A stretch of DNA of 38,436 bases, taken from the NCBI GenBank assembly GCA_004524535.1, contig SDNY01000023.1, forward strand, positions 1 through 38,436, read 5' to 3'. Below are positions 19,394 to 36,976 of the stretch, piece by piece. The translations under genes were made by a program, and so were the position numbers. Origin of the DNA: Promethearchaeota archaeon. Lineage in GTDB: Archaea > Asgardarchaeota > Lokiarchaeia > Sigyniarchaeales > SOKP01. How positions within the stretch are numbered: the first letter of the stretch is position 1; each line of letters starts with the position of its first letter. The notes beneath the pieces are model-generated. The model did not search any database. It had not been told where the DNA came from and was given only the letters and a program-made list of their open reading frames with translations.

Positions 19394-19407
19394 TGAATAA
19401 TCATTCA
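19394..19407. promoter_or_regulatory. Palindromic operator TGAATAATCATTCA (site 1)
   Basis: 13/14 match to palindrome TGAATAATTATTCA, upstream of DUF5320 gene. Confidence 0.75.
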
Positions 19408-19453
19408 GTTCATTCTCCTATTTTTTTGATAGCATAGAATGTGAGATCAATTA

Positions 19454-19467
19454 TGAATAATCATTCA
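19454..19467. promoter_or_regulatory. Palindromic operator TGAATAATCATTCA (site 2)
   Basis: 60 bp after site 1; followed directly by BRE/TATA-like AAAACTTAAATA. Confidence 0.78.
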
Positions 19468-19551
19468 ATAAAACTTAAATAATATAATAACTATTATTTA
19501 ATTAGAAACAAATTAAAAAAAATAAAAAAAAAAAGAGTTGAAAAAATTAAT

Positions 19552-19953
19552 ATGCCACGCGGAGATAGAACTGGACCAAGAGGATTAGGTCCGATGACTG
19601 GAAGAGGATTAGGCTATTGTGCTGGATATGATACTCCAGGCTATACCAAGGGCTTCGGCATGGGATTAGGGCGAGGACTCGGCTGGGGTAGAGGTGGAGG
19701 CTGGGGCAGAGGTGGCGGTTGGGGTAGAAGTGGAGGTTTTTGGGGATATAATGCTCCATATTACGGACCAAATGTAGTTCCGCCTCCCGCTTACGGAGTT
19801 GCACCTCCTGTTTATCCATCTACAACTACACCTGAAGCTCAATTAAATATGCTTAAGCAAGAAAAGCAATATTTAGAGTCTGAAATGGAAAACATTAAAA
19901 GCGCAATGGAAAATATCTCAAAAAGAATTAATGATTTAGAAAAATCTGAATAA
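19552..19953 (+). CDS. DUF5320 family protein (Gly/Arg-rich, C-terminal coiled coil)
   Basis: MPRGDRTGPRGLGPMTGRGLGYCAG signature; LKQEKQYLE...ISKRINDLE coiled coil. Confidence 0.88.
   Translation: MPRGDRTGPRGLGPMTGRGLGYCAGYDTPGYTKGFGMGLGRGLGWGRGGGWGRGGGWGRSGGFWGYNAPYYGPNVVPPPAYGVAPPVYPSTTTPEAQLNMLKQEKQYLESEMENIKSAMENISKRINDLEKSE
19681..19734 (+). repeat. 18-bp coding tandem repeat x3 (GWGRGG/GWGRSG)
   Basis: GGCTGGGGTAGAGGTGGA GGCTGGGGCAGAGGTGGC GGTTGGGGTAGAAGTGGA. Confidence 0.85.
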
Positions 19954-20122
19954 ATTTTTTTTTTATTTTTTATTTTTAAATAAATTCAAAATTCCTCCTA
20001 TAATTTTGAAATAATTTGAAATCGCTCTTATCATTATAACAAAGGAAATTTATATTTATAGACCTTCTAAAAATTAATTTTTAACAAAATTTTGATAAAA
20101 ATTAAAGATTCAATATTTTTGA

Positions 20123-22276
20123 TTAAAAAAAATTAGTAAAAAATACATAGCCCCAATATACCGCACCACCAATTAACAATGCTATAACAATCTCAGAGAG
20201 CGATATTGAAAGCGAATATCTCCAACTGGTCTGTTTAGCGATTATAATCGCGGTCGCGAGACAAGGAAAATATAACATAATTATTAAACAGAAAACAATC
20301 ATTTGTATCGGTGTCATCAGTTCTAATATAGTTACTCCCATTGAAGCTGCTAAAATGGCTAGAAGGACTAAAGTTAATTCTTTTCGTAAAATACCATAAA
20401 TTAAAAAGACACCAACAACAACAGGTAATCCTAACCAAAGAACGGTGATTGGAGATAACACGATATTAATTGGCTCCAAAAGATTGAAGATTAACATGAT
20501 TTCTAATAAGATTCCTAAGATGATAATAATTGGTAGAGCTTTAAATATAAATTCCTTACTTCTCATATACGTTTGTTTAACAATTACATTAGGGTTAGGA
20601 ACGCGATAATCGTGCATTTCCATAATTAATTCTGTACATTCACCAGGCATTATTTTTTTTAATATTCTTCCTACTAATAGAATTACAGAAAAATTTATAA
20701 TGAACAAAAATAAAACCCATAAAAGCCCTAAATAACGCCCAACTAAACCTAGAACTACCGTCATCACTGCTGCGCAAGGAACGAGTGAAGTTAACGCAAC
20801 TGATATCTTCTTTTCGCGTTCAGTCTCCATTATTCTACACCCAGCACATGCGGGGACATTACATCCAAAACCTAAGATCATTGGAATTATCGTCTTTCCA
20901 TGAACACCTATTACGTGCATTACTCTATCCATAAGGAAAGCTGCTCGTGGTAGGTATCCTGAATCTTGAAGTATTTCGATGATAAGAAAAAATGGTATGA
21001 CATATACAAGAACTCCTCCAACAGCTCCAAAAAATCCGCCCATTGCCCCATCCCACAGAAGTTTAACCCAAAAATTATCTTCACCGTAAGTAGCATATAT
21101 GGGTATGCTTAAATTCATAAATAAATCTTCTACTAATCCGCCTAAAAAATCGCCAACAATAAAGGTAAATGCATAGATTCCAACAATTACTAATACTAAT
21201 ATTACATAACCCCATATTGAATGCGTTGTAATGTGATCAATTTTTTCGGCCAATGTTTCCTTAATTGTTTCTGGATTATAATCTAGGACCGTTTTTTCAA
21301 TTATTTTATGGATATTGTTATAAATTTCGGAAGATATTATTGTATTAATGTCTTCACCATGAAGATCTTCCAATTCTTTACGATATTTTTCAGCTTTCTT
21401 AATAATATGTTTAGATTTATCATCAAAATCAAAAATATTAATTATTTCCTCATCATTTTCTAAAATTTTTATTGCTAAAAATCGTGAAGGATAGTTGAAT
21501 TGTAAAAAATACTCTCGATATTCATTAATCAATATGAGTAAGTCCTTTATCTTTAATTCAACTTCCTTACCATAGGAAAGTATTGATGATAAATCAGGAA
21601 ATTGAAAATATTTCTGTGCGGATCTCTCTTGAGCAATTTTAAGTTTACTTTCTTCCCTTAAATGATAATCATGACTAAGATGTTCATGTTTGTTTTTTCC
21701 ACCTTCAACATAATGAGAATGGGGATGATGAAATATGACTAATTCGATAGCCTCTTCTAATAATTGATGAACTCCTGTACCATGTACCGCAACAACAGGA
21801 AGAACTGGTAATTTAAAGATTTCTTCTAACCTTTTGAAATCTAAGTCAATTTTTCTTTTCCTGAGTATGTCCATTTGATTGATTGCCAGGATCATTGGAA
21901 CTTCTAATTCTAAAAGCTGAAATGTAAAAAATAAGTTACGCTCTAAATTAGTGGCGTCAATCACGTTTATAATAATATCTACCTCTTCAGAAACAATATA
22001 TTCTCGACTTACGATTTCTTCCAAAGAATAAGTAGATAAGCTATATATACCAGGTAGATCGACGATATTAAATTGGTAGCCTAAAAAATTAAGATGACCT
22101 TCCATTCTTTCTACAGTTTTGCCAGGCCAATTTCCGATTGTTTGCGAGAGACCAGTTAATTGGTTGAAAATTACTGATTTCCCTACATTTGGATTACCTG
22201 CTAAAGCTATATTAATTATATCCTTATATTTTCCATTATTTTTATTCGATTTCTTCTTTGGAGGATGACAGCTCAT
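20123..22276 (-). CDS. feoB: Ferrous iron transport protein B
   Basis: GNPNVGKS, GNWPGKT, DLPGIYSL, QDSGYLPR, GFGCNVPA, LYFPC. Confidence 0.95.
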   Translation of the reverse strand: MSCHPPKKKSNKNNGKYKDIINIALAGNPNVGKSVIFNQLTGLSQTIGNWPGKTVERMEGHLNFLGYQFNIVDLPGIYSLSTYSLEEIVSREYIVSEEVDIIINVIDATNLERNLFFTFQLLELEVPMILAINQMDILRKRKIDLDFKRLEEIFKLPVLPVVAVHGTGVHQLLEEAIELVIFHHPHSHYVEGGKNKHEHLSHDYHLREESKLKIAQERSAQKYFQFPDLSSILSYGKEVELKIKDLLILINEYREYFLQFNYPSRFLAIKILENDEEIINIFDFDDKSKHIIKKAEKYRKELEDLHGEDINTIISSEIYNNIHKIIEKTVLDYNPETIKETLAEKIDHITTHSIWGYVILVLVIVGIYAFTFIVGDFLGGLVEDLFMNLSIPIYATYGEDNFWVKLLWDGAMGGFFGAVGGVLVYVIPFFLIIEILQDSGYLPRAAFLMDRVMHVIGVHGKTIIPMILGFGCNVPACAGCRIMETEREKKISVALTSLVPCAAVMTVVLGLVGRYLGLLWVLFLFIINFSVILLVGRILKKIMPGECTELIMEMHDYRVPNPNVIVKQTYMRSKEFIFKALPIIIILGILLEIMLIFNLLEPINIVLSPITVLWLGLPVVVGVFLIYGILRKELTLVLLAILAASMGVTILELMTPIQMIVFCLIIMLYFPCLATAIIIAKQTSWRYSLSISLSEIVIALLIGGAVYWGYVFFTNFF

Positions 22277-22333
22277 AATTTTCTCTTATTTAAACTTATT
22301 AAATGAATACATAATTCATATTAAAAAAATTAG

Positions 22334-22633
22334 TTAAAGATCGCAAGTTTGATCACATTCAACAAGAATTTTTGATGCTAAACCTCTACCTATAGCTAAT
22401 GTTGAACCTTTTACAATAATTTCTAATGGTCCATGAAAAGGGGCTTCCCTTTTTTTCTTAATTATCGTTCCAGGAACTATTCCCAAATTCGCTAATCGTC
22501 TTTTTGCTCCGAATCCCGCATTAACACCTAAAACTTTTGTTTTTTCTCCTTTATCGCATTCAGTCAAACATTTAATTAATGGCGTTCCACGCTTTTTATG
22601 ATAATTATGATTTTTATATCTTGAACTTATCAT
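22334..22633 (-). CDS. feoA: FeoA family protein
   Basis: RRLANLGIVPG, APFHGP, LAIGRGLASKI. ATG at 22633 chosen by alignment to the paralog (ORF track starts at 22720). Confidence 0.85.
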   Translation of the reverse strand: MISSRYKNHNYHKKRGTPLIKCLTECDKGEKTKVLGVNAGFGAKRRLANLGIVPGTIIKKKREAPFHGPLEIIVKGSTLAIGRGLASKILVECDQTCDL

Positions 22634-22966
22634 TATTTTTATCTCCAAAAGAAACTTTGACTTTATTTGAAAAAAAGAAAAAATCATATTTAAGTTTTTA
22701 GATGCACCAAATTTAATCATTTTTATCTTGATTCTAATATATTATAAGAAAAAGATATTCAAAAATTATAACATATTAATTATACTTTAATATTATTTAA
22801 TATGATCTTTTATATTTAAGAAATTCTCTTTCAATTTAGATTATGAAGATATCATAAAAAAGTTTGAAACTTATTATTTTCATATTAAATGTTTAATTTA
22901 AATGAATCCGATTATTTTTAATTACTATAATATTCTAAATATTATTTAATCCATTATTTCTTCTAT

Positions 22967-22988
22967 ATATTTAGTTGGACTTAAATAT
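22967..22988. promoter_or_regulatory. Candidate DtxR/MntR-type box
   Basis: ATATTTAG-TTGGAC-TTAAATAT inverted repeat (7/8 arms, 6-bp spacer) upstream of feoA; resembles TTTAG-N6-CTAAA. Confidence 0.5.
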
Positions 22989-23021
22989 TAGGAATTCTTT
23001 TTTTTGTGTAAGGTAGTATTA

Positions 23022-23324
23022 ATGGTAAATAATATGAATAACTTTCATAAAAATCATTACAATCATCCTTCAAAACCATTAATAAAATGCTTAACTGATT
23101 GTGAATTAGGTTCAGAATTCACGGTTGTTGGGGTAAATGCTGGTCAGAAGGCAAAAAAACGTCTTGCTCATCTTGGAATTTTTCCTGGTGTGAAAATTAG
23201 CATGAAACATTGTGCACCTTTTCGAGGCCCCATAAATATTATTGTAAAGGGAACATCCATAGTTTTAGGTAGAGGTTTAGCATCTAGAATATTAGTTGAT
23301 TCTGTAAATATGCATAATCAATAG
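23022..23324 (+). CDS. feoA: FeoA family protein (second, divergent copy)
   Basis: KRLAHLGIFPG, APFRGP, LGRGLASRI. ATG 23022 follows AAGGT (ORF track starts at TTG 23004). Confidence 0.85.
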   Translation: MVNNMNNFHKNHYNHPSKPLIKCLTDCELGSEFTVVGVNAGQKAKKRLAHLGIFPGVKISMKHCAPFRGPINIIVKGTSIVLGRGLASRILVDSVNMHNQ

Positions 23325-23435
23325 AAGAATCTGGTTTTATTATCAACATTTTACTCATATTTTATATAACTCAAGAACTAAAACATCAAACTATTATTTA
23401 TCTTATATTTGCTATATTTCTTACGAATATGTTTA

Positions 23436-23449
23436 TGAATGATTATTCA
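23436..23449. promoter_or_regulatory. Palindromic operator TGAATGATTATTCA (site 3)
   Basis: 13/14 match upstream of the second DUF5320 gene. Confidence 0.75.
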
Positions 23450-23496
23450 ATAATTCAAACAGATATATTTTTATATGAAAAAAACTATTTATATTA

Positions 23497-23510
23497 TGAA
23501 TAATTATTCA
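23497..23510. promoter_or_regulatory. Palindromic operator TGAATAATTATTCA (site 4)
   Basis: Perfect palindrome 61 bp after site 3, just downstream of TATA-like TTTATA (23488-23493). Confidence 0.8.
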
Positions 23511-23564
23511 TTATAAGTTACAATATAACAAAACCAAAATTTAAAACCGAGGTGTAAAAAAAAA

Positions 23565-23945
23565 TTGCCTAGAGGTGATGGTACAGGACCTTGGGGTCAA
23601 GGTTCAATGACTGGTAGAGGTTTAGGCTATTGCGCAGGTTATAATACACCAGGATATACTAAGGGACCGGGTATGGGTCTTGGAAGAGGATGGAGTAGTA
23701 GAAGCAGGTTTGGAATTGGTAGAAATTTAGCTTGGCGTAGGGGTTGGGGCAGAGGAGTGGGTGGTTTTGGGAGTTATCGAACTCCTATTTATTTACCATC
23801 CACAATGCCTCAACCAATTGTTCCAGAGAATCAATTAAACATGCTAAAACAAGAAAAACAATTTTTACAATCTGAAATGGAGCGAATTAAAAACGGATTA
23901 GGCGATATTTCTAAAAGAATTGAGGAATTAGAAAAAACTGAATAA
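23565..23945 (+). CDS. DUF5320 family protein (second copy)
   Basis: TTG start after GAGGTG; MPRGDGTGPWGQGSMTGRGLGYCAG; coiled-coil tail. Confidence 0.88.
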   Translation: MPRGDGTGPWGQGSMTGRGLGYCAGYNTPGYTKGPGMGLGRGWSSRSRFGIGRNLAWRRGWGRGVGGFGSYRTPIYLPSTMPQPIVPENQLNMLKQEKQFLQSEMERIKNGLGDISKRIEELEKTE

Positions 23946-23990
23946 TTATTTTTTTTTAATTTAAAAGTCCTATTAAGAAGATGAAATAGA

Positions 23991-24377
23991 ATGAAACACT
24001 TAAATAAGAGTTATGAGGATTATATAAAAGCCATATATTTAATTTCAAAAGAAAATAAAGGTGGCTGGGTATCCAATTCAAAAATTTCAAATCTTTTAAA
24101 AGTTAAACCATCTTCAGTTACAAATATGTTGTATAAGTTAAAAGCGAAAGATCTAATAGATTGGAAGCCAAACAAATCTTTAAGATTAACCAAAAAGGGA
24201 AAAAAAATTGCCCTTAGCATTGTTAAAAACTATAATAGTTTATTTGATTTTTTTGTACATGTTTTAAAATTAAAAGACAATGATCAAGTGAAAAATTTAT
24301 GCTGTAATATTGAGCATTATATAACTCCAGAGATATCTGATGCTCTAGAAAATCTTATTCTTGAATTTCATTATTAA
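23991..24377 (+). CDS. DtxR/MntR family metal-dependent transcriptional regulator
   Basis: EDYIKAIY, LKVKPSSVTNML, LTKKG, CNIEH. Confidence 0.88.
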   Translation: MKHLNKSYEDYIKAIYLISKENKGGWVSNSKISNLLKVKPSSVTNMLYKLKAKDLIDWKPNKSLRLTKKGKKIALSIVKNYNSLFDFFVHVLKLKDNDQVKNLCCNIEHYITPEISDALENLILEFHY

Positions 24378-24444
24378 TAAACGATAAAATTATCCCCTAA
24401 AGAATAATTATTTTAAGTTCAATTGGACCATATAAATACCAACT

Positions 24445-25428
24445 TTACTGAAAATAAAATAAATAAGCAAAAAAGAAGAAATATGAACCTATATATATAC
24501 AAATGAATAGAATTCCAGACTTTTTATCTACTTTTTCTCTCCAAGCTATTACTGCTATTACGAGCATTGAAGCAAAAATAGTATATATAATCAAAGGAAT
24601 AATCAATTTCGCAGAAACTTCTTGGGGGAAAAAAAGTTGCCCTATCGTTATACTAATGGTTGCATCTATTATACATGAACCCAAAATATCTCCAATAGCC
24701 AAATTATAATTTTTTCTTTTAATTGCATTAATATCTACTGCTAATTCGGGGAGAGATGTTCCAATACTTAGAATAAAAAAACTAATGATTAATTCATTAG
24801 CATTAAACCTTAAGGAGAGCATTATTACTGCTGAAACAATAATAATTGAACTCAGAACCACTCCCAATAACCCTATAATCATTATTGTAGCATGATATTT
24901 TTTACTCTTGCACCTTTTTGAAATTAAAATCAATTCTACTTCTTTTAAGAGGTCACTTTTAGTCACGTTGTAAATTACCATTAAATAAAAGACTAAGCTA
25001 CAAATTATAAATATTGCATTTAAACGAGTAAAGTAGCCTTTTTCAATGACTGAATAAATTAAAATAAGCGATAATATGACGCAAGATCCTATAATTATAA
25101 TTTGTTTTCTTTTAACAACAAATCCTCCACATATTATGGGAAGTAACCCGAAAATCAGAGTTATTTGAGTTAGAACTGAACCAATGGAATCTCCTGCATC
25201 AATATCTCCATGCCCAATTGAACATGAAATAATGGAATTAATAATTTCAGCAATATCTGTACCTATCGCGACAATGGTAATTCCAATCACTAGATTTGAT
25301 ACTCCTAAAGCTGAAGCAAGCTTTGCAGCATGCTTAACTACTAAATTACTCATATATGCGATGAGCAGAATCCCTCCAATGAGCATAGTTATTGCTAAAG
25401 AAATAATCATCATTTCTTTATAATCCAC
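24445..25428 (-). CDS. Sodium:calcium antiporter family (CaCA) protein
   Basis: ~10 TM; alpha repeats IGTDIAE/GDSIGS and IGTSLPE/GDILGS. Confidence 0.85.
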   Translation of the reverse strand: MDYKEMMIISLAITMLIGGILLIAYMSNLVVKHAAKLASALGVSNLVIGITIVAIGTDIAEIINSIISCSIGHGDIDAGDSIGSVLTQITLIFGLLPIICGGFVVKRKQIIIIGSCVILSLILIYSVIEKGYFTRLNAIFIICSLVFYLMVIYNVTKSDLLKEVELILISKRCKSKKYHATIMIIGLLGVVLSSIIIVSAVIMLSLRFNANELIISFFILSIGTSLPELAVDINAIKRKNYNLAIGDILGSCIIDATISITIGQLFFPQEVSAKLIIPLIIYTIFASMLVIAVIAWREKVDKKSGILFICIYIGSYFFFFAYLFYFQ

Positions 25429-25659
25429 ATCCTATATCTTCTCTTTTTCAATTTTAATGGATTGATTATCTTCTTATAATTAACTCCAATTTCCTCTTAT
25501 TAAATGAACTTTAAATGAGGGATGTAGATAATCTCCAATTAATTTAATAATTAGATTAATCAATCCCTGTTATGTTCCATTTATATTTCTTCAATTATAC
25601 AATATAATTTCTCTACTAATGAATTGTCTTTTGATTTTAAACCATTGATCTAAAATTGA

Positions 25660-26154
25660 TTATACTTCCCCATAATTCGTTGGGTATTTAATTTCCATTC
25701 TTTTTTTCTTTTCACCTTTATAATTAACTTCAATTATCTTTTTCTTTATCAGACTTGATGAATTTAATCCATATTTATCGTAAGATCTGTTTAATCTCCT
25801 CACTTCAATATGCCCCAAACCTTTTCTTTTTAATGCTTTTTTTAAAATGTTTCCATCAAATTTTTGATCTGGACCTAATAAAATGATATCAGGATTAATT
25901 CCTGATACAGTTAATAATATTTCATTATCTTTCCTTCCTAATTTGGCTTGTTTAACATTTTTTAGACTTTTAACAACTTCTAACCTTTGTTCTTCAGGGA
26001 TAATTGGCAATTTTCCTGAAAATTTTTCTCGATTTATATCTGTAGCTACAATTATATAAACTTCTCCTAACTTTGCAGCTTCATTAATTAAAAAAATATG
26101 ACCTGGATGTAAAATATCAAAAGTACCTGCGATAAGTACTTTTTTAGTAATCAT
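25660..26154 (-). CDS. ribL: Archaeal FAD synthase (cytidylyltransferase-like)
   Basis: AGTFDILHPGH, EEQRLEVV, PDIILLGPDQ, SSSLIK. Confidence 0.8.
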   Translation of the reverse strand: MITKKVLIAGTFDILHPGHIFLINEAAKLGEVYIIVATDINREKFSGKLPIIPEEQRLEVVKSLKNVKQAKLGRKDNEILLTVSGINPDIILLGPDQKFDGNILKKALKRKGLGHIEVRRLNRSYDKYGLNSSSLIKKKIIEVNYKGEKKKRMEIKYPTNYGEV

Positions 26155-26211
26155 AGATAATCCCTCTATTAATATTTTTAAATATATTTATTATGATTTT
26201 AAAGGAGAAAT

Positions 26212-26556
26212 TTATATTTGCCTAATAATTTCTTTCAAAATCAATTCATTGAAAGCTCCAATCATAACTCCTTTTTTTACTAATACTTCTTCATTAATCT
26301 TAATATTTTTGTTTAAGAGCATACCATCCTTAAAAAATATTAAAGCTGGCACAGCATAGATATTCAATTCTCGAGCTAAATTGCTATTTTTATCAATATC
26401 AATTTCTTCTAATTTTAATATCCCATTATCTCTAAAATCTTCTAAAATAGTTGAAAGTAATTCACAAGATTTACACCATTTAGAACATAAAACTATAATA
26501 AATTTACCCTTGTTAGGACCATAGATTCCGAACTTTTTTAAATCTTCTATTTTCAT
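26212..26556 (-). CDS. Thioredoxin family protein
   Basis: WCKSC active site, IDID, cis-Pro AVP, FFKDG. Confidence 0.82.
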   Translation of the reverse strand: MKIEDLKKFGIYGPNKGKFIIVLCSKWCKSCELLSTILEDFRDNGILKLEEIDIDKNSNLARELNIYAVPALIFFKDGMLLNKNIKINEEVLVKKGVMIGAFNELILKEIIRQI

Positions 26557-26709
26557 ATAATGAATTATTTATTTATTATACTTTGAGATTAAATAAATGG
26601 CTTTTAGATAATATTCAATATTTTCATTGGCCATCAAAATTCAACCCTTTTATTTCATTTTTTTTAATAATATAACTTCTTTCATAAATTTCTAAAAAAA
26701 ATTTCAAAT

Positions 26710-26919
26710 TTATAAATTCTTTTGCTCACAATTGAGTAAAAATGTATATGGATATTCCAATAGGTCTAGCTTTTCGATTATTAAATTTTCAATATGTTTT
26801 TCTTTCTTAGATATAGAGATAATAGGTATTTTTGTTATGATATTTTCACCATTTAAATATATGTTATAGTAAATGACTTGTTTATCCTTATCGAAATCAA
26901 TAAATTTGTCTATATTCAT
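26710..26919 (-). CDS. Small hypothetical protein
   Basis: 69-aa ATG ORF co-oriented with neighbours; no motif recognised. Confidence 0.45.
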   Translation of the reverse strand: MNIDKFIDFDKDKQVIYYNIYLNGENIITKIPIISISKKEKHIENLIIEKLDLLEYPYTFLLNCEQKNL

Positions 26920-26999
26920 AAAGATTCCATATTTTTGTTTGATTTTTGGGAGATTTCATTTTTTTTCTAATTAATATTAAAAAAAAAAGAAAATGAAAC

Positions 27000-27191
27000 T
27001 TAATTCTTCAATTTCGCAAAGCAATCTTCACAAAAAAAAATCCTTCGCATTTTAGTAGTATCTCTGACCATATGACCTGATTTATATTTCTTTTCGCAAC
27101 CCCAACATATCTTAAATACTTTTGTATCAACAAGATATTCATCTTTCGGATCAAAATTATCATCCTTTATGATTTCTTTATAACTTGTCAA
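27000..27191 (-). CDS. Small CxxC...CxxC zinc-finger-like protein
   Basis: CWGC...FCEDC; TTG start; two operator palindromes directly upstream. Confidence 0.65.
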   Translation of the reverse strand: MTSYKEIIKDDNFDPKDEYLVDTKVFKICWGCEKKYKSGHMVRDTTKMRRIFFCEDCFAKLKN

Positions 27192-27222
27192 TTTTTTTTA
27201 CCAACTCAATTCTATATGTTTT

Positions 27223-27236
27223 TGAATGATTATTCA
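27223..27236. promoter_or_regulatory. Palindromic operator TGAATGATTATTCA (site 5)
   Basis: 13/14 match, ~31 bp upstream of the 27191 start. Confidence 0.75.
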
Positions 27237-27284
27237 TAAATCTAATACTATGTAATAAATATCACTATAGTAATTTAAATGTTC

Positions 27285-27298
27285 TGAATAATTATTCA
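27285..27298. promoter_or_regulatory. Palindromic operator TGAATAATTATTCA (site 6)
   Basis: Perfect palindrome 62 bp from site 5; TATA-like TTTAAA lies between the two. Confidence 0.8.
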
Positions 27299-27424
27299 TA
27301 AAATAAATAAATAGAAAGGTAAATTATAGCCTTGATATATTGAAATATTATTTTAATGGATTGGAATATTAAATTTCATCCTAATTACCATTATCAAATC
27401 TTTTCTCTATATATTGATCTCTCG

Positions 27425-28357
27425 TTAAATATCTAATTTCCAAAAGATTTCATTATTATAAATTATCCTTTGAATTCTTTTTCGATATTCAAGTGCTTTT
27501 AATCGCTTTAATATTTCTTTTTGGTTAAAATTTTCAGTAGAAAAAGTCTCTATAATTTGATCTTGTCTCATAGGATGTCTTTCAATTATTGACAAGACCT
27601 CTTTTTCAAAATCTAAAGAATAAAAATCGAAATTTCCCTTCTCTGGAAATGTGATATCATAAATATCACCAAAAATTGCCTTAACAAGAGGAATAATGCT
27701 TTTATCTGGAATTTTAACCCAATTTTCAGTAGGAGGTCTTGTTGGAACGTTTATATCAATTCTATCTGGTTTTATTAAATCAATTTTTTCTTTAATTTTT
27801 AATAAATTTTCATTTGAGTCGTTGACGCCCTTTATTATCATTATTTCTAACCATAACTTACCTTTAAATTTTCTTTTAAATTCAATTATACCCTGAATAA
27901 TGTCATTATATTTAAGAGAAGGGTGAGGCCGATTTATTTTGATAAAAAGCTGACTATCTCCCGCATCTAGGCTAGGTAAAACAACATCAGCAAGCATAAG
28001 GGCCTTGCTAACCTCGGAATTATACAATAATGCTCCATTTGTAATTACGCAAACGGGATTTTTTGATAACTCTTTTGCTTTTAAAATCAATTTTTCTAAA
28101 TCTTTATATAATGTGGGTTCACCGCTGCCAACAAAAGTTATATAATCTATTTTTTTTTCATTTTGTTCGATAGCTTCTCTCATTTCAGCAATAATGTCTT
28201 CCTTCGGATAATAATTTCTCCGTTCATTCGTAAAAAAAGTCGTTTTTCCTATTTGACAATATATGCATTGGAAATTACAAGTTTTTGAGGGAATAGGATC
28301 AATTCCCAAAGATCTACCTAATCTCCTACTCGGTACAGGCCCATAGATATATTTCAT
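27425..28357 (-). CDS. Radical SAM Fe-S oxidoreductase (COG0731-like)
   Basis: YGPVPSRRLGRSLGI, CNFQCIYC, GSGEPTL, VITNG, KINRP. Confidence 0.82.
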   Translation of the reverse strand: MKYIYGPVPSRRLGRSLGIDPIPSKTCNFQCIYCQIGKTTFFTNERRNYYPKEDIIAEMREAIEQNEKKIDYITFVGSGEPTLYKDLEKLILKAKELSKNPVCVITNGALLYNSEVSKALMLADVVLPSLDAGDSQLFIKINRPHPSLKYNDIIQGIIEFKRKFKGKLWLEIMIIKGVNDSNENLLKIKEKIDLIKPDRIDINVPTRPPTENWVKIPDKSIIPLVKAIFGDIYDITFPEKGNFDFYSLDFEKEVLSIIERHPMRQDQIIETFSTENFNQKEILKRLKALEYRKRIQRIIYNNEIFWKLDI

Positions 28358-28447
28358 ATAAACTTCTAAAAATAATATTAATGTATTAAAAAAAATAATT
28401 TAATAGTTCTTATTCACATAAAAAATAAAAGAACAATATAATCATAA

Positions 28448-28894
28448 CTATCCCTTTGTATGTTTGAATTTTTCAATCGACCGTTTTAAAGTTCTCGCAG
28501 CTAATTCTGCGCAATGTTTATGATCTTCTGGTAGCCCTCCTAAGGCATTTTCAATATCTTCTGGTCTTAAATTTTCAGCAAAATCTAAAGATTTACCCTC
28601 AATCAAAAGAGTTGTTTGGCTTCCTGCTGCTACTGTTGCTCCACAACCGTCTGTAATAAAGTTTGCTTTTTCGATTATATTATTATTATTATTAATTTTT
28701 AAAAAGAACTGCATCGTATCCCCACAAGGACCCTCATAAGCATGCCACACACTTATTTTATCAATGGGGGGTTTACCCCAATTTTTTGGATTATGGAATA
28801 ATTTAACAACGTATTGATTATATTCTTCTAATTCTTTATTTAGAATTTCTTTTTGAAGATTTTTTACAAATTCATCAAAATGCTCTTCGGCCAT
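28448..28894 (-). CDS. IscU/NifU-N type Fe-S scaffold
   Basis: HNPKN, GPCGD, DGC, LPEDHKHCA (three scaffold Cys). Confidence 0.88.
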   Translation of the reverse strand: MAEEHFDEFVKNLQKEILNKELEEYNQYVVKLFHNPKNWGKPPIDKISVWHAYEGPCGDTMQFFLKINNNNNIIEKANFITDGCGATVAAGSQTTLLIEGKSLDFAENLRPEDIENALGGLPEDHKHCAELAARTLKRSIEKFKHTKG

Positions 28895-28954
28895 GCTATC
28901 TTAAATTAGTTTTTTTATTAAATAAAATTTTAAATCTCAATTTAAAATTATGAA

Positions 28955-29827
28955 TTATTTTTCTAATATTTCTTGAATATTTTTTACAGCCTCCTTGAAA
29001 GCTTTCGCACTTTTACTATCAGTATATTTAATAATAAAAGGTAAACCTTTATCTCCTTGAATTCCTATTTCAACTTCAAAAGGTATTTTACCCAATAATC
29101 GAATATTGAAATCCTTCGCAGCTTTTTCAGCTCCTCCTGGAGGGTAAAGATCGATATGTTTACCACAATGAGGACAGGCAAATCCAGACATGTTTTCAAT
29201 GATCCCAAGAACATTTCTTTCCATTATTTGAGACATTTTTATTGTTTTTCGAGCATCCATAAGAGCAACTTCTTGAGGAGTAGAAACAACGACCACATTT
29301 TCATCAGGTATAAGTTGGAGAATGTCTAAAGTCTCATCAGAAGTTCCAGGTGGTAAATCACATACTAAATAATCAAGTTCGCCCCATATAGCATCGCCAA
29401 GAAATTGTCTTACAGCACCCATTTTCATTGGACCTCTCCAAATTACTGGTGAATCAGAATTCTCAAGAAGAAATGCCATACTCATAACTTTTATATTTAA
29501 AGGGCCATTAATTGGAAAAAATTTCCTAGCGTCTGGATCAACTCTTGGCTTTAATTCAGGGCTTATTCCTAACATTTTTGCAACATTAGGACCCGTAATG
29601 TCAACATCTAAGATTCCTACTCTTAATCCCACACTTGCTAAACTCATGGCAAGGTTAACAGCAACTGTTGATTTTCCAACACCTCCCTTTCCGGAGATCA
29701 CAACAATCTTATGTTTAATTTTTGCCATATTTTTTTTTATCTCTTCCATGCGTAGATCCATGGCTTCTTTTTTACCTTGTTCTACAGTATCTTTTAAGTT
29801 AATATCGGGTATCTCATCTTCAGTCAT
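28955..29827 (-). CDS. Mrp/ApbC/Nbp35 family Fe-S carrier ATPase
   Basis: SGKGGVGKST, DVDITGP, VIWRGP, DLPPGTSD, ENMSGFACPHC. Confidence 0.93.
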   Translation of the reverse strand: MTEDEIPDINLKDTVEQGKKEAMDLRMEEIKKNMAKIKHKIVVISGKGGVGKSTVAVNLAMSLASVGLRVGILDVDITGPNVAKMLGISPELKPRVDPDARKFFPINGPLNIKVMSMAFLLENSDSPVIWRGPMKMGAVRQFLGDAIWGELDYLVCDLPPGTSDETLDILQLIPDENVVVVSTPQEVALMDARKTIKMSQIMERNVLGIIENMSGFACPHCGKHIDLYPPGGAEKAAKDFNIRLLGKIPFEVEIGIQGDKGLPFIIKYTDSKSAKAFKEAVKNIQEILEK

Positions 29828-30014
29828 ATCATCACTTATTCTAATTTTTTTTCCTTATTTTTATCAAAATTAAAATCTTCTCTATTTAATTTAATGTTTA
29901 ATAATATTCTTAAATTGGTTTTTAATAATTTATAAAAATTTTAAGTTTTTCTCTAAAGTTTTTTTTTATTATGAGAAAACTTTTATAGAATTAATTTTTT
30001 TATTACTTAAACAA

Positions 30015-30032
30015 TATGAATAATTATTCATA
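30015..30032. promoter_or_regulatory. Palindromic operator TATGAATAATTATTCATA (site 7)
   Basis: Perfect 18-bp palindrome in the divergent mrp / nifX-like intergenic region, ~28 bp downstream of GAAAACTTTTATA (BRE/TATA-like). Confidence 0.85.
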
Positions 30033-30087
30033 ATTTAAAAAACTTATCAAATAATAAAAAGAAAAACATAAAGAGGTAAATATAAAT

Positions 30088-30558
30088 ATGGTTATAGTAG
30101 CAGTTCCATCTTTTGGAGAGGGTGGATTGAATGAAATTGTCAATCCCAGATTTGGTCGCTGTGACTCATTCACTTTTGTAACAATTGAAGATAACTCTAT
30201 AAAAGAAGTTAAAGCTGTATCTAATATGGCTGCAGGTGCTATGGGTGGTGCTGGAATCCAAGCAGCTCAAACTATAGGAAATCATGGAGCTACAATAGTA
30301 ATTGCTGGAAATTTAGGTCCTAATGCTGCCCAATCATTAATGGCCTTGAATTTAAAGATTTATCAAGCGCCAACTCAACAGCTAACGGTAAAACAAGCTG
30401 TAGAATTATTCATTGAGGGTAAATTACAAGAAATGGGCGGTTCAAATGTCGGCGCTCATTTTGGAATGGGTGGTGGTGGAATGGGTGGCGGCCGAGGAAT
30501 GGGCGGTGGTCGTGGAATGGGTGGTGGAGGAGGAATGGGCGGAGGCCGTAATTTCTAA
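30088..30558 (+). CDS. NifB/NifX family (orange-protein-like) protein with Gly/Met/Arg-rich tail
   Basis: VAVPS, RFGRCDSF, GAGIQAAQ, GNLGPNA. Confidence 0.88.
   Translation: MVIVAVPSFGEGGLNEIVNPRFGRCDSFTFVTIEDNSIKEVKAVSNMAAGAMGGAGIQAAQTIGNHGATIVIAGNLGPNAAQSLMALNLKIYQAPTQQLTVKQAVELFIEGKLQEMGGSNVGAHFGMGGGGMGGGRGMGGGRGMGGGGGMGGGRNF
30463..30549 (+). repeat. Coding tandem repeat GMGGG(R/G) x5
   Basis: GGAATGGG(T/C)GGNGGN units of 15-18 bp. Confidence 0.85.
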
Positions 30559-30598
30559 TTCATCATTTTAAATTGAAGGAAATAAAGTTAAATAAATA

Positions 30599-31519
30599 AT
30601 GTCAAAAAAACCTGTAGTAATTTGCGTAACGGGAGGTAAAGGCGGAACTGGCAAAACCTTGGTGGCAGTTAATTTAGCGACCATGTTTAAAAATATTGGA
30701 AAAAAGGTTTTGTTAATTGATGGTGACGTAGAAAATCCAAACACATATTTATTGTTAGGGGGAGAACTTGAAAATAAAGAATCTGTTCCTTTTTTCAAAC
30801 CAGAAATTATTGAAGAAAAATGTACTAAATGTGGTCTATGTGCGGAAAATTGCGCTCCACATGCTTTATTGCATATAAAAGATGCGTATCCAATACCAAT
30901 TTTACCAGTTTGTTCGGGATGTAAGTTATGTTATAAAATCTGCCCTGCAGAAGCTATTAAAGCAGGGCAAAAAACTATTGGTTGGACGTATTCAACAATC
31001 AAAAATGGCATCTCTCTCCTAATCGGTGAATTAAAACCATCTGAAGCGCGTTCTGCCGCCGTAGTTGAAGTTCTACTTGAGAAATTAGACGAGACCATCA
31101 AAACAGAACCAACTAAATATGATTATATTGTTCTAGATACCGCCCCTGGTGCTCATTGTGATGTTGAATTATTAATTAATAAAGCTGATTTTGTTGTACC
31201 TGTAACAGAGCCCACGAGATTTGGAAAATTAGATTTAATAAGGATAATTGAGTTGATTGAATTAATAAATAAAGATTCTCGAGCAATTGTTAATAGATCA
31301 TCATTGTTGGGTTATAGAGATCAATTCTTAAAGGAATTGGAAGAGAAAAATATAAAAATTTTAGGGGATATTCCTTTAGATGATGATATTGTCAATTCTT
31401 ACTGTCAAGGAATACCGTTAATGGACGAAAATAGCGAATTTAAAAGTGGCGAGGGTTATAAAGCATTTCAAGAAATATTTAATAATCTTATTGAATGGAT
31501 TGATACAAATAACACTTAA
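30599..31519 (+). CDS. MinD/ParA-type P-loop ATPase with inserted 2[4Fe-4S] ferredoxin domain (COG1149)
   Basis: GGKGGTGKT, DGDVENPN, CTKCGLCAENC and CSGCKLCYKIC, DTAPG, VTEPT. Confidence 0.9.
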   Translation: MSKKPVVICVTGGKGGTGKTLVAVNLATMFKNIGKKVLLIDGDVENPNTYLLLGGELENKESVPFFKPEIIEEKCTKCGLCAENCAPHALLHIKDAYPIPILPVCSGCKLCYKICPAEAIKAGQKTIGWTYSTIKNGISLLIGELKPSEARSAAVVEVLLEKLDETIKTEPTKYDYIVLDTAPGAHCDVELLINKADFVVPVTEPTRFGKLDLIRIIELIELINKDSRAIVNRSSLLGYRDQFLKELEEKNIKILGDIPLDDDIVNSYCQGIPLMDENSEFKSGEGYKAFQEIFNNLIEWIDTNNT

Positions 31520-31534
31520 AATAATAGGAAAAAA

Positions 31535-32461
31535 ATGAAGAGAAAAGCAATAGGAATAATATCTGGAAAAGGTGGTGTTGGAAAAACATCATTAACAGCA
31601 GCACTAGCAAGCATTGTAAGAACAGATAATGAAATAAATGCAATTATCTTAGATTGTGATGTAGATGCCCCTAATCTGGCTTTAATCCTTCCTGAAGAGC
31701 CAAATAGTAAAATAAAATCACTAGATACTTTTACAACACTAAAAGCTACTTTCTTAGAGGATAAATGCGTTCAATGCAGGCAATGTATTGATGATCACTT
31801 CTGTGAATTCAATGCGTTAAAATGGGACGAAGAAAATTCTATTCCAACTATTGATTATTTAGCATGTGAAGGCTGTGGAGCTTGCAAAGTTTTATGTCCT
31901 GAGCACGCTTTTGAAATAAATACTGTAAAAAGTGGCGAAATAATTTCTTATAAAACAAACATTACATTACCATTAATATATGGTAAAACTAGACTTGGTA
32001 GTACGACATCTGGAAAATTAGTTTCAGATGTCAAAGAATATGCTAAACAAGTTGATGAATTTGAAGATTGCAATTTAATTTTGATAGATGGACCACCTGG
32101 CATAGGTTGCCCTGTAATTGCCACGGTTTCTGGATTAGATTACATTATTACAATAACAGAGCCAACTCCCTCCGGTTTACATGATCTTGTAAGAGCAATC
32201 GAAGTAGTACAACAATTTGAAATTCCATTTGGGATAGTAATCAATAAATTTGATTTAAAAAGTCCTTTTCAAGATGATTTTAAAGAGTATATTGAGAATA
32301 CAGGATTTTATATTTTAGGAAAAATTCCTTTTGATCTGTCAATACCTAAAGCAATGTCCTATGCAGAATCCGTAGTGGATTTCGCACCAAACTCAGATGC
32401 AAGTTTAGCTATTAAGGCTATTTATAATAATCTCAAAAATGCTTTATGGAATAGTGAATAA
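31535..32461 (+). CDS. Second MinD/ParA-type ATPase with ferredoxin insert (COG1149)
   Basis: SGKGGVGKT, DCDVDAPN, CVQCRQC...C, CEGCGACKVLC, DGPPGIGCPV, TEPTPSG. Confidence 0.9.
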   Translation: MKRKAIGIISGKGGVGKTSLTAALASIVRTDNEINAIILDCDVDAPNLALILPEEPNSKIKSLDTFTTLKATFLEDKCVQCRQCIDDHFCEFNALKWDEENSIPTIDYLACEGCGACKVLCPEHAFEINTVKSGEIISYKTNITLPLIYGKTRLGSTTSGKLVSDVKEYAKQVDEFEDCNLILIDGPPGIGCPVIATVSGLDYIITITEPTPSGLHDLVRAIEVVQQFEIPFGIVINKFDLKSPFQDDFKEYIENTGFYILGKIPFDLSIPKAMSYAESVVDFAPNSDASLAIKAIYNNLKNALWNSE

Positions 32462-32583
32462 ATTTTAGCTATAAGTTAATTGAAAACATTAAAAAGAAGG
32501 AATTATATTCTCTATAATATTATTCTGAACTAATTCTAATTATTTAGTTAATTCTATCCCTGTGATTAAAAAAAAAAGTATTA

Positions 32584-33003
32584 TCAGATAGGTTCTCGTA
32601 TTAAATAATAAACATTATCCGAATCGCAATTAATACACTTAACTTTTTTATCTCTAGATGCGGATCTATCCTCCCATTCACTATCGCAATCCGCACATCC
32701 ATACCCAATGAAAGTTATTTTATAATCAACCTCCCCGCCGAATACCTTAATAGTTTTTCCTTCAATTAAAGCTTGAGTAACTTTTTGATGAGTTCTTTCT
32801 ATGATACGAGAAAATGTTGGTTGACTTATTCCCATCCATTCGGATGCCTGTTCCTGATTCAAATTCATATAATGTTTAAGGCGAAGAGCTTCAAATTCTG
32901 CTACAGTTAGAATAATATTTGCTTCCGTTGATGGGCTCTCGCGAGAGAAATAAAAATTATTTGGTGGTTGACCAACCCATCTGCGACGAATTCTTCTTCC
33001 CAT
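32584..33003 (-). CDS. DUF134 (UPF0251) predicted DNA-binding protein with C-terminal Zn ribbon
   Basis: MGRRIRRRWV, EFEALRL...LNQEQASEWMGISQPTFSRI HTH, CADC...CINC. Confidence 0.88.
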   Translation of the reverse strand: MGRRIRRRWVGQPPNNFYFSRESPSTEANIILTVAEFEALRLKHYMNLNQEQASEWMGISQPTFSRIIERTHQKVTQALIEGKTIKVFGGEVDYKITFIGYGCADCDSEWEDRSASRDKKVKCINCDSDNVYYLIREPI

Positions 33004-33132
33004 TTCGAATCAACTAGCAAGTTTTGAATGAAAAATATTTATAATATTATCATAAAAAAAAATTTCTCAAGATCTATAGAATTTTAATTTTTTTAGGGGA
33101 ATTAATTAAGTTTGATTAATGAGTTATTTCTT

Positions 33133-33540
33133 TTAATGATGATGATGATGATCATCATCTATATCATCAGCGTCAGTATGGATTTTTTCTACTCCAAAAC
33201 CCTTACCTATACCAGGAGAACATAAACTCTCTCCGCCTTCTAGTGTCCCATTTAATATTCTTTCAATAACATCATCAATAGAGCCAACAACCCCTACAAT
33301 TACTTCAATCCCATATTGGTTAAAAAATTGGACTGCTCGAGGTCCCATTCCCCCAGCAATCATAAAATTCGCACCTTGTTGACTTACAAATTGGGGGATA
33401 CTTCCTACGGAATGCCCTGGATTGGGAAGTACTTCTTTTTTAACTACTTTATTATCTTCAATTGTAACAAAAAGAAACTCTGGAGCTCTTCCAAAATGTG
33501 CACAAACTTTTCCCGATTCCATACTAATAGCTATTTTCAA
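33133..33540 (-). CDS. NifB/NifX family protein with acidic/His-rich tail
   Basis: KIAIS, HFGRAP, NPGH, GGMGPRA, tail DADDIDDDHHHHH. TTG 33540 follows AGGTG (ORF track starts at 33573). Confidence 0.88.
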   Translation of the reverse strand: MKIAISMESGKVCAHFGRAPEFLFVTIEDNKVVKKEVLPNPGHSVGSIPQFVSQQGANFMIAGGMGPRAVQFFNQYGIEVIVGVVGSIDDVIERILNGTLEGGESLCSPGIGKGFGVEKIHTDADDIDDDHHHHH

Positions 33541-33602
33541 TTTTATTATACACCTATTTATTTTTATATTCATATTTTAAGAATAAATTCAAGCATTTAA
33601 AT

Positions 33603-33624
33603 TTTATGAATAATTATTCATAAA
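33603..33624. promoter_or_regulatory. Palindromic operator TTTATGAATAATTATTCATAAA (site 8)
   Basis: Perfect 22-bp palindrome just downstream (minus strand) of TATA-like TTTTTATATAAAAA at 33631-33644; precedes nifX-like and DUF134 genes. Confidence 0.85.
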
Positions 33625-36080: not shown

Positions 36081-36495
36081 ACAAAAAAAAGTTGAAAAAG
36101 AACTCTCAGAATATAATAAGTATATAATAGAATTATTTCACAATCCTAAGAATCTTGGCAAACCCAAGAAAGCCGATATTAGCGTATCTCAATCATATAC
36201 CGGACCATGTGGAGATACAATGCAGTTCTTTTTAAAAATTAATGATAATATAATCGAAAAGGCCAATTTTATCGCAGATGGTTGTGCTGCTTCTGTTACG
36301 ACAGCCAGCCAAACAACAATTCTCATTGAAGGTAAATCTTTAGATTTTGCAGAAAAATTAAAAGCAGAAGATATTGACGAAGCGTTGAAAGGCTTACCGG
36401 AAGATCATAAACATTGCGCAGAATTATCAATAAAAACTTTAAAATGGGCAATAAAAAAATATAAAGATAAAAGATTATTGGATATTTATGAATAA
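36067..36495 (+). CDS. IscU/NifU-N type Fe-S scaffold (second copy)
   Basis: HNPKN, GPCGD, DGC, LPEDHKHCA; overlaps the mrp stop; start uncertain (GTG 36058 or ATG 36067). Confidence 0.85.
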   Translation: MRKIKQKKVEKELSEYNKYIIELFHNPKNLGKPKKADISVSQSYTGPCGDTMQFFLKINDNIIEKANFIADGCAASVTTASQTTILIEGKSLDFAEKLKAEDIDEALKGLPEDHKHCAELSIKTLKWAIKKYKDKRLLDIYE

Positions 36496-36497
36496 TA

Positions 36498-36920: not shown

Positions 36921-36976
36921 ATATCATGATTTTTATAAATAAATTTATTTAAGATTAATAAAATATAAGAAGTGTA

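Follow-up and report, generated by a model that had tools for sequence, protein, structure and literature searches.

A 14-bp palindrome with a TGAAT/ATTCA core, hereafter the TGAAT box, occurs eight times in a stretch of 38,436 nt from a Promethearchaeota archaeon (contig SDNY01000023.1, assembly GCA_004524535.1; the whole stretch is called the window), and is predicted to be the operator of the DUF134/UPF0251-family protein encoded at 32584-33003. We consider it probable (about 0.7) that DUF134 is the cognate factor of the box, that it is autoregulated and that it represses. DUF134 is favoured because the iron-uptake gene feoA has a separate box of the DtxR type and because bacterial DUF134 loci carry a related palindrome. 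Both observations support an earlier sequence-only reading of the window, which had named DUF134 as the probable cognate factor and a DtxR-family protein as the alternative. The latter stays as a rival, though weakened.

With at most one mismatch, the TGAAT box TGAATAATTATTCA is found eight times in the window against 0.11 expected from dinucleotide-preserving shuffles, and the pattern TGAATNNNNATTCA eight times against 0.27; none of 100 shuffles reached eight in either case. The DNA of the window outside open reading frames (ORFs) taken alone (5318 bases, approximately 21% GC) holds 8 boxes against 0.07 expected, with a maximum of 3 in 500 resamples. Since relaxing the search to three mismatches adds background only (23 matches against 17.8 expected), the box is a sharp class and not the tip of a degenerate AT-rich family. 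The search recovered the same eight starts as the sequence-only reading and gave none in the first 19 kb, as had been noticed by eye. That all copies are intergenic also holds, 8/8 lying between labelled genes, and the approximately 40 other promoters of the window are without the box. A repeat scan revealed neither flanking repeats nor target-site duplications at the palindromes. As described before, the perfect palindrome grows to 18 bp at 30017 and to 22 bp at 33607 (extended form ATGAATAATTATTCAT). The genes previously associated with the boxes (two DUF5320 genes, a 63-aa Cys-rich ORF designated ZnRib63, the mrp/nifX divergon and nifX-DUF134) keep their assignments by Pfam. The boxes, located by pattern search and listed without strand, are:

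19394..19407, TGAAT box, distal of the pair upstream of DUF5320_1 (TGAATAATCATTCA)
19454..19467, TGAAT box, proximal of the pair upstream of DUF5320_1, 60 bp from the distal one
23436..23449, TGAAT box, distal of the pair upstream of DUF5320_2-dtxR
23497..23510, TGAAT box, proximal of the DUF5320_2-dtxR pair, 61 bp spacing, 68 bp ahead of the DUF5320_2 start
27223..27236, TGAAT box, proximal, upstream of ZnRib63
27285..27298, TGAAT box, distal, upstream of ZnRib63, 62 bp spacing
30017..30030, TGAAT box, perfect 18-bp palindrome in the mrp/nifX1 divergon, 71 bp ahead of nifX1
33607..33620, TGAAT box, perfect 22-bp palindrome upstream of nifX2-DUF134, proposed autoregulatory site

The box is conserved in relatives. 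Related loci were found by a DUF134 scan of genome contigs, and 20-38 kb per genome were inspected (L005 being a 3-kb contig). All seven (L001-L007) belong to metagenome-assembled genomes of Asgard archaea (Promethearchaeota, Hodarchaeota, Hermodarchaeota), with 28-31% GC and DUF134 proteins that are 64-94% identical. A methanogen as the source of the window, which gene content and 30% GC had suggested, is rejected on these grounds. The TGAAT box is present in 7/7 of them, in 5, 5, 6, 5, 1 (the 3-kb contig), 5 and 6 copies, respectively. Motif and DUF134 thus co-occur in every Asgard locus retrieved via DUF134, and the retention of the box at the same promoters is in line with the regulon operator that had been proposed. 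Among 41 exact boxes in the eight Asgard genomes, 38 lie in non-ORF DNA, where 0.28 are expected; the TGAAT/ATTCA core is unchanged in 41/41 copies and the flanks diverge. When 64 composition-matched palindromes were compared across the Asgard loci, TGAA-N6-TTCA ranked at the top with 44 copies vs 18 for the runner-up.

Four kinds of site recur. Site (a) stands ahead of DUF134 in 8/8 genomes: it precedes co-directional nifX2-DUF134 genes in the window and in L001, nifX2 is inverted in L002-L004, L006 and L007 to give a nifX2/DUF134 divergon, and in L005 the box is upstream of DUF134 on a contig that ends short of the nifX2 region. Site (b) is one box in the divergon of nifX1-COG1149 and mrp-iscU-radical SAM (7/7), and site (c) a pair of boxes upstream of DUF5320-dtxR (7/7). 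In L002-L004 and L006, where ZnRib63 is 68-77% identical and box-associated, site (d) consists of one or two boxes that separate ZnRib63 from a third nifX-like gene; in L007 two boxes are found upstream of the third nifX-like gene. All exact-exact pairs (11/11) are spaced 60-62 bp. A matrix built from the 41 sites picks up degenerate partners, for example TGGAT variants and a conserved TGAATAATTAATAA approximately 100 bp downstream of site (a), towards DUF134, so that several seemingly single sites are pairs too. Conservation alone cannot choose the regulator, because the DUF134 and dtxR-like genes both always lie behind a box.

At L001 1555-1948 one exact and three near-exact TGAAT boxes are clustered between genes resembling a hydrogenase small subunit (Oxidored_q6) and OsmC, in a region that corresponds to the one past the right edge of the window. 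This cluster suggests that the regulon may reach redox or peroxide-defence genes.

Evidence that separates the two regulators comes from bacteria. A tblastn search of DUF134 against plasmid records gave 167 records, of which 11 were opened (L008-L018). At least 153 enterobacterial plasmid records contain a DUF134 homologue (Klebsiella 66, Citrobacter 45, Escherichia 17, Enterobacter 14, Raoultella 11). Concerning the gene neighbourhood, Pusillibacter, Roseburia and Selenomonas have DUF134 fused to a NifX-like domain (3/3 long forms scanned), and an alignment suggests the same for Subdoligranulum. These fusions came from the plasmid records; a protein-database search for longer fused forms gave no match, which is weak evidence. 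A NifX-family gene follows DUF134 in the Salinivibrio, E. coli and Klebsiella plasmids, and DUF134 adjoins Mrp in Selenomonas and Acetoanaerobium. The Peptoclostridium DUF134 gene has DUF5320, radical SAM, Mrp and Fur-family genes in its vicinity; the radical SAM protein beside DUF5320 is 47% identical to rSAM310 of the window (E 3e-85), and the 63-aa ORF beside DUF5320 shows no similarity to ZnRib63. DUF134 overlaps a NifB/NifX-family gene at L015 2989-3872 and L016 2989-3745, followed in the Klebsiella one by PaaI thioesterase and Dps genes. A DtxR homologue was not found in the seven bacterial loci that were blasted and none is annotated in L015-L017; L018 is unannotated.

The TGAAT box was not found in the first seven bacterial loci (L008-L014), so the TGAAT sequence itself is lineage-specific. 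A 14-bp palindrome of the form TTGRCATATGYCAA or TGARCATTTGYTCA is instead present upstream of the DUF134 genes of Firmicutes, gammaproteobacteria and Bacteroidota, often in two copies (L008 4904; L010 4912; L011 4034, 4938 and 4972; L013 5941; L014 6545 and 6574; L015 2935 and 2963; L016 2934 and 2963; L017 2861; L018 2860). Roseburia and Selenomonas have TTGACATATGTCAA, Pusillibacter and Subdoligranulum TTGACATATGCCAT, the enterobacterial plasmids a box of the TTGGCATATGCCA type, Salinivibrio one of the TTGCATATGCCA type and the Bacteroidota TGAGCATTTGCTCA and TGAACATTTGTTCA. Exact GRCATATGYC matches in the first seven bacterial loci fall within 90 bp upstream of DUF134 or Mrp in 6/7 cases. 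In a leave-one-locus-out matrix test, which took the place of a generic test of palindrome richness, the best 14-mer of the held-out locus lay no more than 130 nt ahead of DUF134, NifX or Mrp in 9/11 loci (P 3e-14, uniform placement).

The core promoter is flanked by two boxes in Selenomonas, Salinivibrio, E. coli and Klebsiella; the first is at -35, the other between -10 and the ribosome-binding site, an arrangement that parallels the Asgard pairs. The Bacteroidota half-site TGAACAT has 5/7 positions in common with Asgard TGAATAA and 5/7 with Firmicutes TTGACAT; since it matches both, the Asgard and bacterial boxes form one graded family. The case for DUF134 is strengthened because its bacterial homologues, in loci where DtxR was not found, have this related palindrome ahead of DUF134, NifX or Mrp.

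The second line of evidence concerns feoA. The consensus of a one-dimer IdeR/DtxR site is given as TTAGGNNNNCCTAA in the relevant part of PMC8464063, and the Haloferax TroR site described in the corresponding part of PMC10783522, TTTAGGC-NNN-CCTAAA, has the same form. In the Asgard loci, 4/7 matches to TTAGGNNNNCCTAA with one mismatch lie within 150 nt upstream of feoA starts, a space that makes up 0.93% of the DNA. With up to two mismatches it is 9/84 (P 1e-7), and 9/16 when only non-ORF DNA is considered (P 2e-8). Such a box is found in 8/10 feoA windows, 33-127 bp upstream of the gene (window 22971; L001 17183 and 17001; L002 16407 and 17525; L003 17742; L004 17044; L006 16452). The specificity is one of position only: TTAG-N6-CTAA is not enriched overall (9 copies, 13th of 64 composition-matched palindromes). 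The pattern TTAGKNNNNMCTAA matched exactly four times, 4/4 upstream of feoA, but it was derived from those instances and the published consensus was used instead. The copy in the window, found by consensus search and listed without strand, is:

22971..22984, DtxR/IdeR-type box TTAGTTGGACTTAA, 2 mismatches to TTAGGNNNNCCTAA, 33 bp ahead of feoA_2, outside the TGAAT regulon

Within 150 nt upstream of the feoA starts, the TGAAT box is matched at best with 2-4 mismatches in 9/10 cases and with 1 in L007. The TGAAT box lacks TTAGG/CCTAA half-sites, and only the 5-4-5 layout is common to it and the IdeR/DtxR-type operator; it does not mark the metal-uptake genes feoAB, and it does have a linked DtxR-family gene, by way of the pair ahead of DUF5320-dtxR. 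The dtxR-like gene is flanked by feoA genes in the window and likewise in the 5 loci with both genes side by side; in L007 the only feoA of the locus is approximately 14 kb away from it. The DtxR-type box at feoA is probably the site of the DtxR-like protein of the island. The island thus holds two motifs and two regulators, a family-typical DtxR box marking a family-typical DtxR target. The DtxR alternative is weakened because the feoA promoters carry this separate box and are without the TGAAT box.

The DtxR-like protein itself is atypical. Its best matches are to MntR and fall below the cut-off. When it is compared with B. subtilis MntR, whose metal ligands we take to be D8, E11, H77, E99, E102 and H103, the equivalents of D8, E102 and H103 are kept, a Cys stands at E99, and E11 and H77 are replaced by K and Y. 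C105, E108 and H109 of the island protein are invariant in 7/7 orthologues, the gene always following DUF5320. It starts 45 bp past DUF5320_2 and so also lies behind the box pair at 23436 and 23497, a position that the sequence-only reading had missed.

The DUF134 protein of the window matches Pfam PF02001 (DUF134/UPF0251) with 73.8 bits (cut-off 27) and NCBIfam PRK04217 with 55 bits, below the cut-off of 115. The form with 139 aa and four Cys comprises 151 database clusters (E <= 1e-5), and all those with a source name are Asgard. C103, C106, C123 and C126 are invariant in 8/8 and 40/40 DUF134 sequences. The structural model (mean predicted local distance difference test score (pLDDT) 79.7; 88-93 over residues 31-80 of the helix-turn-helix (HTH)) has three helices and a small beta-rich C-terminal module that holds the four Cys. 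As modelled, the fold is a sigma-70-region-4-like HTH: the best local matches in a fold search were sigma-70 region 4 and the DeoR DNA-binding domain on its operator (7bhy), with a root mean square deviation (rmsd) of 0.5-0.8 A and E >= 0.014, and the bacterial homologues match Pfam Sigma70_r4. The recognition helix reads SQPTFSRI in Asgard (invariant in 40/40) vs SRATVQQI-like in bacteria, and changes in step with the box sequence across lineages. The conserved N-terminus of DUF134 begins at an ATA codon after a GGTGAT ribosome-binding motif in 5/8 Asgard genomes (L002-L004 and L006 at 10001; L005 at 514) and at ATG in the window, L001 and L007. ATA may serve here as a non-canonical start codon and so restrict how much of the regulator is translated.

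The genes of the island, annotated by Pfam, are:

19552..19953, + strand, DUF5320_1 with Gly/Arg/Trp-rich repeats (PF17253, 82 bits)
20123..22720, - strand, feoA_1-feoB operon
23004..23324, + strand, feoA_2 (FeoA), proposed target of the DtxR-like protein
23565..23945, + strand, DUF5320_2 (PF17253)
23991..24377, + strand, DtxR/MntR-family regulator of 128 aa, two domains, no SH3
27000..27191, - strand, ZnRib63, 63-aa CxxC..CxxC ORF, no Pfam family in the scan
27425..29827, - strand, mrp_1 - iscU_1 - radical SAM (rSAM310) operon, divergent from nifX1
30088..32461, + strand, nifX1 (NifX-like, Gly/Arg-rich tail) and two MinD/ParA-type ATPases with inserted 4Fe-4S ferredoxin motifs (Orp3/4-like)
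32584..33003, - strand, DUF134 gene (PF02001), sigma-70-region-4-like HTH plus C-terminal 4-Cys module by prediction, proposed cognate factor
33133..33573, - strand, nifX2 (NifX-like, His tail), first gene of the nifX2-DUF134 unit

Both nifX1 (30088-30558) and nifX2 (33133-33573) encode a Nitro_FeMo-Co domain, and NifX2 matches the C-terminal domain of the NCBIfam MrpORP model at 4e-27. The two ATPases (30599-31519 and 31535-32461) match CbiA/ParA plus Fer4 models, and Mrp_1 (290 aa) has a P-loop NUBPL/ParA domain only. Repeats rich in Gly and Arg (and Trp) are found in the tail of nifX1 (30454-30558) and in both DUF5320 genes (19649-19736 and 23722-23761; repeat families D1 and D2). They bear some resemblance to the cationic tail by which, according to PMC6345978, P. 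furiosus IssA binds thioferrate. A paralogous set at 35235-38197 (mrp_2, iscU_2, a polyferredoxin and a cation-efflux protein with a fused NifX-like domain) has no TGAAT box, the sole nearby matrix match being weak and inside iscU_2; only one of the two Mrp-IscU sets of the window appears to be under TGAAT-box control. Elsewhere in the window, judged by eye from the translations, overlapping small genes at 11405-12057 among hypF, hypE and hypD resemble a HepT/MNT-type (DUF86 plus nucleotidyltransferase) toxin-antitoxin pair, and tandem HisF-like paralogues (5170-5997 and 6112-6927) adjoin a HisH-like gene.

The position of the boxes within promoters suggests how they may act. Where promoters of L002-L006 carry a pair, a conserved TATA-like ATAATAYTTAAAT(A/T) comes directly after the distal palindrome, and the proximal palindrome lies approximately 47 bp past the distal end, 24-41 bp ahead of the DUF5320 start codon. 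In the window and L001, TTTTTATATG is situated approximately 25 nt ahead of the proximal site, and single sites have a TATA-like element right next to them, towards the regulated gene. The sequence-only reading had placed the boxes at 30017 and 33607 downstream of a TATA-like element, near the start of transcription. This geometry is one of two possible readings, since each palindrome has a TATA-like element immediately behind it as well. Both readings would have the two operators bracket the region from TATA to start, with the proximal one over or just past the start. In archaea, an operator over or just after the transcription start blocks recruitment of the polymerase. Single sites could occlude the TATA region and its transcription factor B recognition element (BRE), or conceivably recruit factors. 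A spacing of about 61 bp is near six helical turns, which suggests that both sites may lie on the same face and be bound cooperatively.

Repression is the likely mode of action of DUF134, because the paired operators bracket the TATA-to-start region. We propose that DUF134 binds the palindrome as a two-fold symmetric oligomer, that single operators act at the core-promoter edge of nifX2/DUF134 and nifX1-COG1149, and that operator pairs 60-62 bp apart, bracketing TATA to start of DUF5320(-dtxR) and ZnRib63, would repress these genes. By its own upstream site DUF134 would regulate itself. The predicted regulon comprises the NifX-like proteins (ORP/IssA-type), the Orp3/4-like Fe-S ATPases, DUF5320, the small zinc-ribbon protein, DUF134 and the DtxR-like regulator, with Mrp-IscU-radical SAM as probable members. 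Because the DtxR-like iron regulator is within the TGAAT regulon, control of iron uptake (the DtxR box at feoA) would be placed downstream of DUF134. As to the signal, our guess, by analogy, is Fe-S, metal-cluster or redox status, perceived via the 4-Cys module or the NifX-like partner. Near boxes, the OsmC-like gene of L001 and a peroxiredoxin gene of Peptoclostridium are faint hints of a redox link; the latter (prxU, thioredoxin-dependent) is preceded at approximately 280 bp by ATGGCATATGCCGC (L009 9964-9977), the best box of that locus, which is thus not at DUF134.

Several observations weigh against DUF134 as the regulator. The fold search gave no match at E <= 0.001, all fold matches having E > 0.01. 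The leave-one-out matrix missed L009 and L018 (2/11), and the generic test for 14-bp palindromes upstream of bacterial DUF134 was weak (P 0.015), with starts misplaced in L013 and L017. The bacterial loci are not phylogenetically independent, including two Oscillospiraceae and three gammaproteobacteria, and their box differs from the Asgard box in sequence and partly coincides with the sigma-70 -35 hexamer (TTGACA). A further set of points would suit the DtxR/MntR-like protein of the island (23991-24377), which might bind TGAAT in a metal-dependent manner and autoregulate via DUF5320-dtxR, the TTAGG boxes at feoA belonging to another paralogue and DUF134 being merely regulated. Since the dtxR-like gene lies behind a box pair in 7/7 genomes, the logic of autoregulation fits DtxR equally well; TGAAT and DtxR-type boxes have the same 5-4-5 architecture, and the regulon concerns iron and Fe-S. 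The protein need not recognise TTAGG, because it is atypical in having E11 and H77 replaced, and the TTAGG box could belong to a DtxR paralogue encoded elsewhere, in which case the island protein would be available for TGAAT; several DtxR paralogues are common in archaeal genomes, according to the part of PMC10783522 that treats them. The sole feoA of L007 is preceded at 47 bp by TAAATGATTATTCA (2501-2514), a TGAAT-like box with a single mismatch, and by a DtxR-type box with two mismatches, which could be cross-regulation or a point for DtxR. In addition, the feoA_1-feoB promoter (22721-23003) contains neither a TGAAT box at up to three mismatches nor a DtxR-type box at up to two. Against this, the canonical DtxR-type box is specific to the feoA genes that flank this very regulator gene, the TGAAT box avoids 9/10 feoA promoters, and the related palindrome goes with DUF134 in bacterial loci where DtxR was not found. 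We regard control by the DtxR-like protein as rather unlikely, yet as the most serious competitor.

It seems improbable to us that the box is bound by a third transcription factor whose gene lies beyond the window and the loci, such as a global redox or Fe-S regulator with both DUF134 and DtxR as targets. The analysis covered 20-38 kb per genome, a small part of each, and the bacterial box resembles CRP/FNR-type 5-4-5 boxes, with a Crp/Fnr gene adjoining DUF134 in Pusillibacter, a resemblance that also speaks against DUF134. CRP/FNR sites have a free centre, however, unlike the bacterial box with its conserved central CATATG; moreover, DUF134 is the sole gene common to all 19 box-bearing loci (8 Asgard, 11 bacterial), and its recognition helix varies together with the box. 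Less plausible still is a palindrome that serves as a promoter element, small mobile repeat or RNA hairpin and not as an operator. It is AT-rich and stands beside TATA-like sequences, but it is limited to about five promoter classes with a fixed pairing, is missing from the other promoters of the window, retains its core where flanks diverge and is without the repeats or duplications of a mobile element; a loopless perfect palindrome of 14 nt forms a weak hairpin only.

The island can be compared with the ORP system of D. vulgaris and its regulator OrpR, as far as the passages of PMC6345978 and PMC8359166 describe it. There, Orp3/4 have two 4Fe-4S motifs and a MinD-like helix, Orp8 is a single 'Di-Nase' (NifX-like) domain, Orp9 is Mrp fused to a Di-Nase domain, and P. 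furiosus IssA, of the same domain family, stores thioferrate via a cationic tail (PMC6345978). OrpR is presented as a redox-sensing Fe-S protein restricted to deltaproteobacteria (PMC8359166). The island likewise has single-domain NifX/Di-Nase proteins (Orp8-like), paired 4Fe-4S MinD-type ATPases (Orp3/4-like, by the published description and Pfam models), an Mrp/NBP35 carrier and divergent operons under what would be one dedicated local regulator (PMC8359166, PMC6345978). Because OrpR senses redox through an Fe-S cluster, a Cys-rich sensor is plausible in DUF134. In contrast to Orp9, the Mrp of the window has no fused NifX domain, and the Asgard regulon adds IscU, radical SAM, DUF5320, the zinc-ribbon ORF and the DtxR-like regulator. 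OrpR, moreover, is described as a sigma-54 enhancer-binding activator, whereas DUF134, the candidate here, is a small sigma-4-like HTH protein that would act on archaeal TATA-type promoters, probably as a repressor; no sigma-54-interacting or PAS-AAA+ protein was found by Pfam among the 26 island proteins.

With DtxR, IdeR and TroR regulons, in the parts of the literature cited above, the island shares the 14-bp 5-4-5 palindrome at metal-related promoters, often multiple per promoter, as well as a family member encoded in the island with a matching box at feoA. It differs in its half-site, TGAAT and not TTAGG, which marks Fe-S/NifX-type genes and avoids feoA, and in that the related bacterial box tracks DUF134 and not DtxR. 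The closest solved DNA-bound HTH is that of B. subtilis DeoR (SorC; PDB 7bhy and 8r7y), with 35% identity over 40 residues and an rmsd of 0.7 A. DeoR is alike in its small sigma-4-like HTH and binds its palindromic operator as an oligomer. The match covers the HTH only (E 0.015-0.06; sequence match E 0.015), and DeoR has a sugar-phosphate-binding effector domain where DUF134 has a 4-Cys module or NifX-like domain. IscR and SufR are autoregulated HTH repressors of Fe-S assembly genes (IscU, carriers) with palindromic operators and Cys ligands as sensor. The regulatory logic we propose for DUF134 would be like theirs; they are unrelated to it in sequence, having Rrf2 and ArsR-type folds where DUF134 is sigma-4-like, and cluster binding by DUF134 is hypothetical.

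Concerning novelty, a literature search found mentions of DUF134, none of them on regulation, and nothing of relevance on DUF5320, UPF0251 or COG1342. The 14-mer box strings, three in all, did not occur in the literature among the matches listed, and no description of the bacterial palindrome was found in the literature searched. The TGAAT operator and its regulon may be novel, though an archaeal DtxR survey may already contain a TGAAT-type motif: Leyn and Rodionov in 2015 reportedly sorted archaeal DtxR motifs into ten classes, of which one may be of the TGAAT type.

If true, the finding would give the first function, operator and regulon to DUF134/UPF0251, a family that ranges from Asgard archaea, Firmicutes, Bacteroidota and gammaproteobacteria to the enterobacterial plasmids. 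It would also suggest how the 'anaerobe-specific' set of ORP, NifX-like and Mrp proteins is controlled outside the deltaproteobacteria, to which OrpR, the one regulator known so far, is confined. The prediction can be tested directly with short probes and small, easily expressed proteins. A broader picture, which we offer tentatively and hold to be rather doubtful, is that DUF134 might be a cross-domain, autoregulated metal-sulfur-cluster sensor-repressor, with the NifX-like module (fused in Firmicutes, adjacent in Proteobacteria and Asgard) as cluster sensor or co-repressor. Although bacteria and archaea have unrelated transcription machineries, the core promoter would be clamped by two operators in both, and in Asgard archaea, where DUF134 would stand above DtxR, Fe-S demand might be the master signal for iron uptake. 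The same two-operator clamp in bacteria and archaea would, if true, be an instructive case of regulatory logic that crosses transcription systems.

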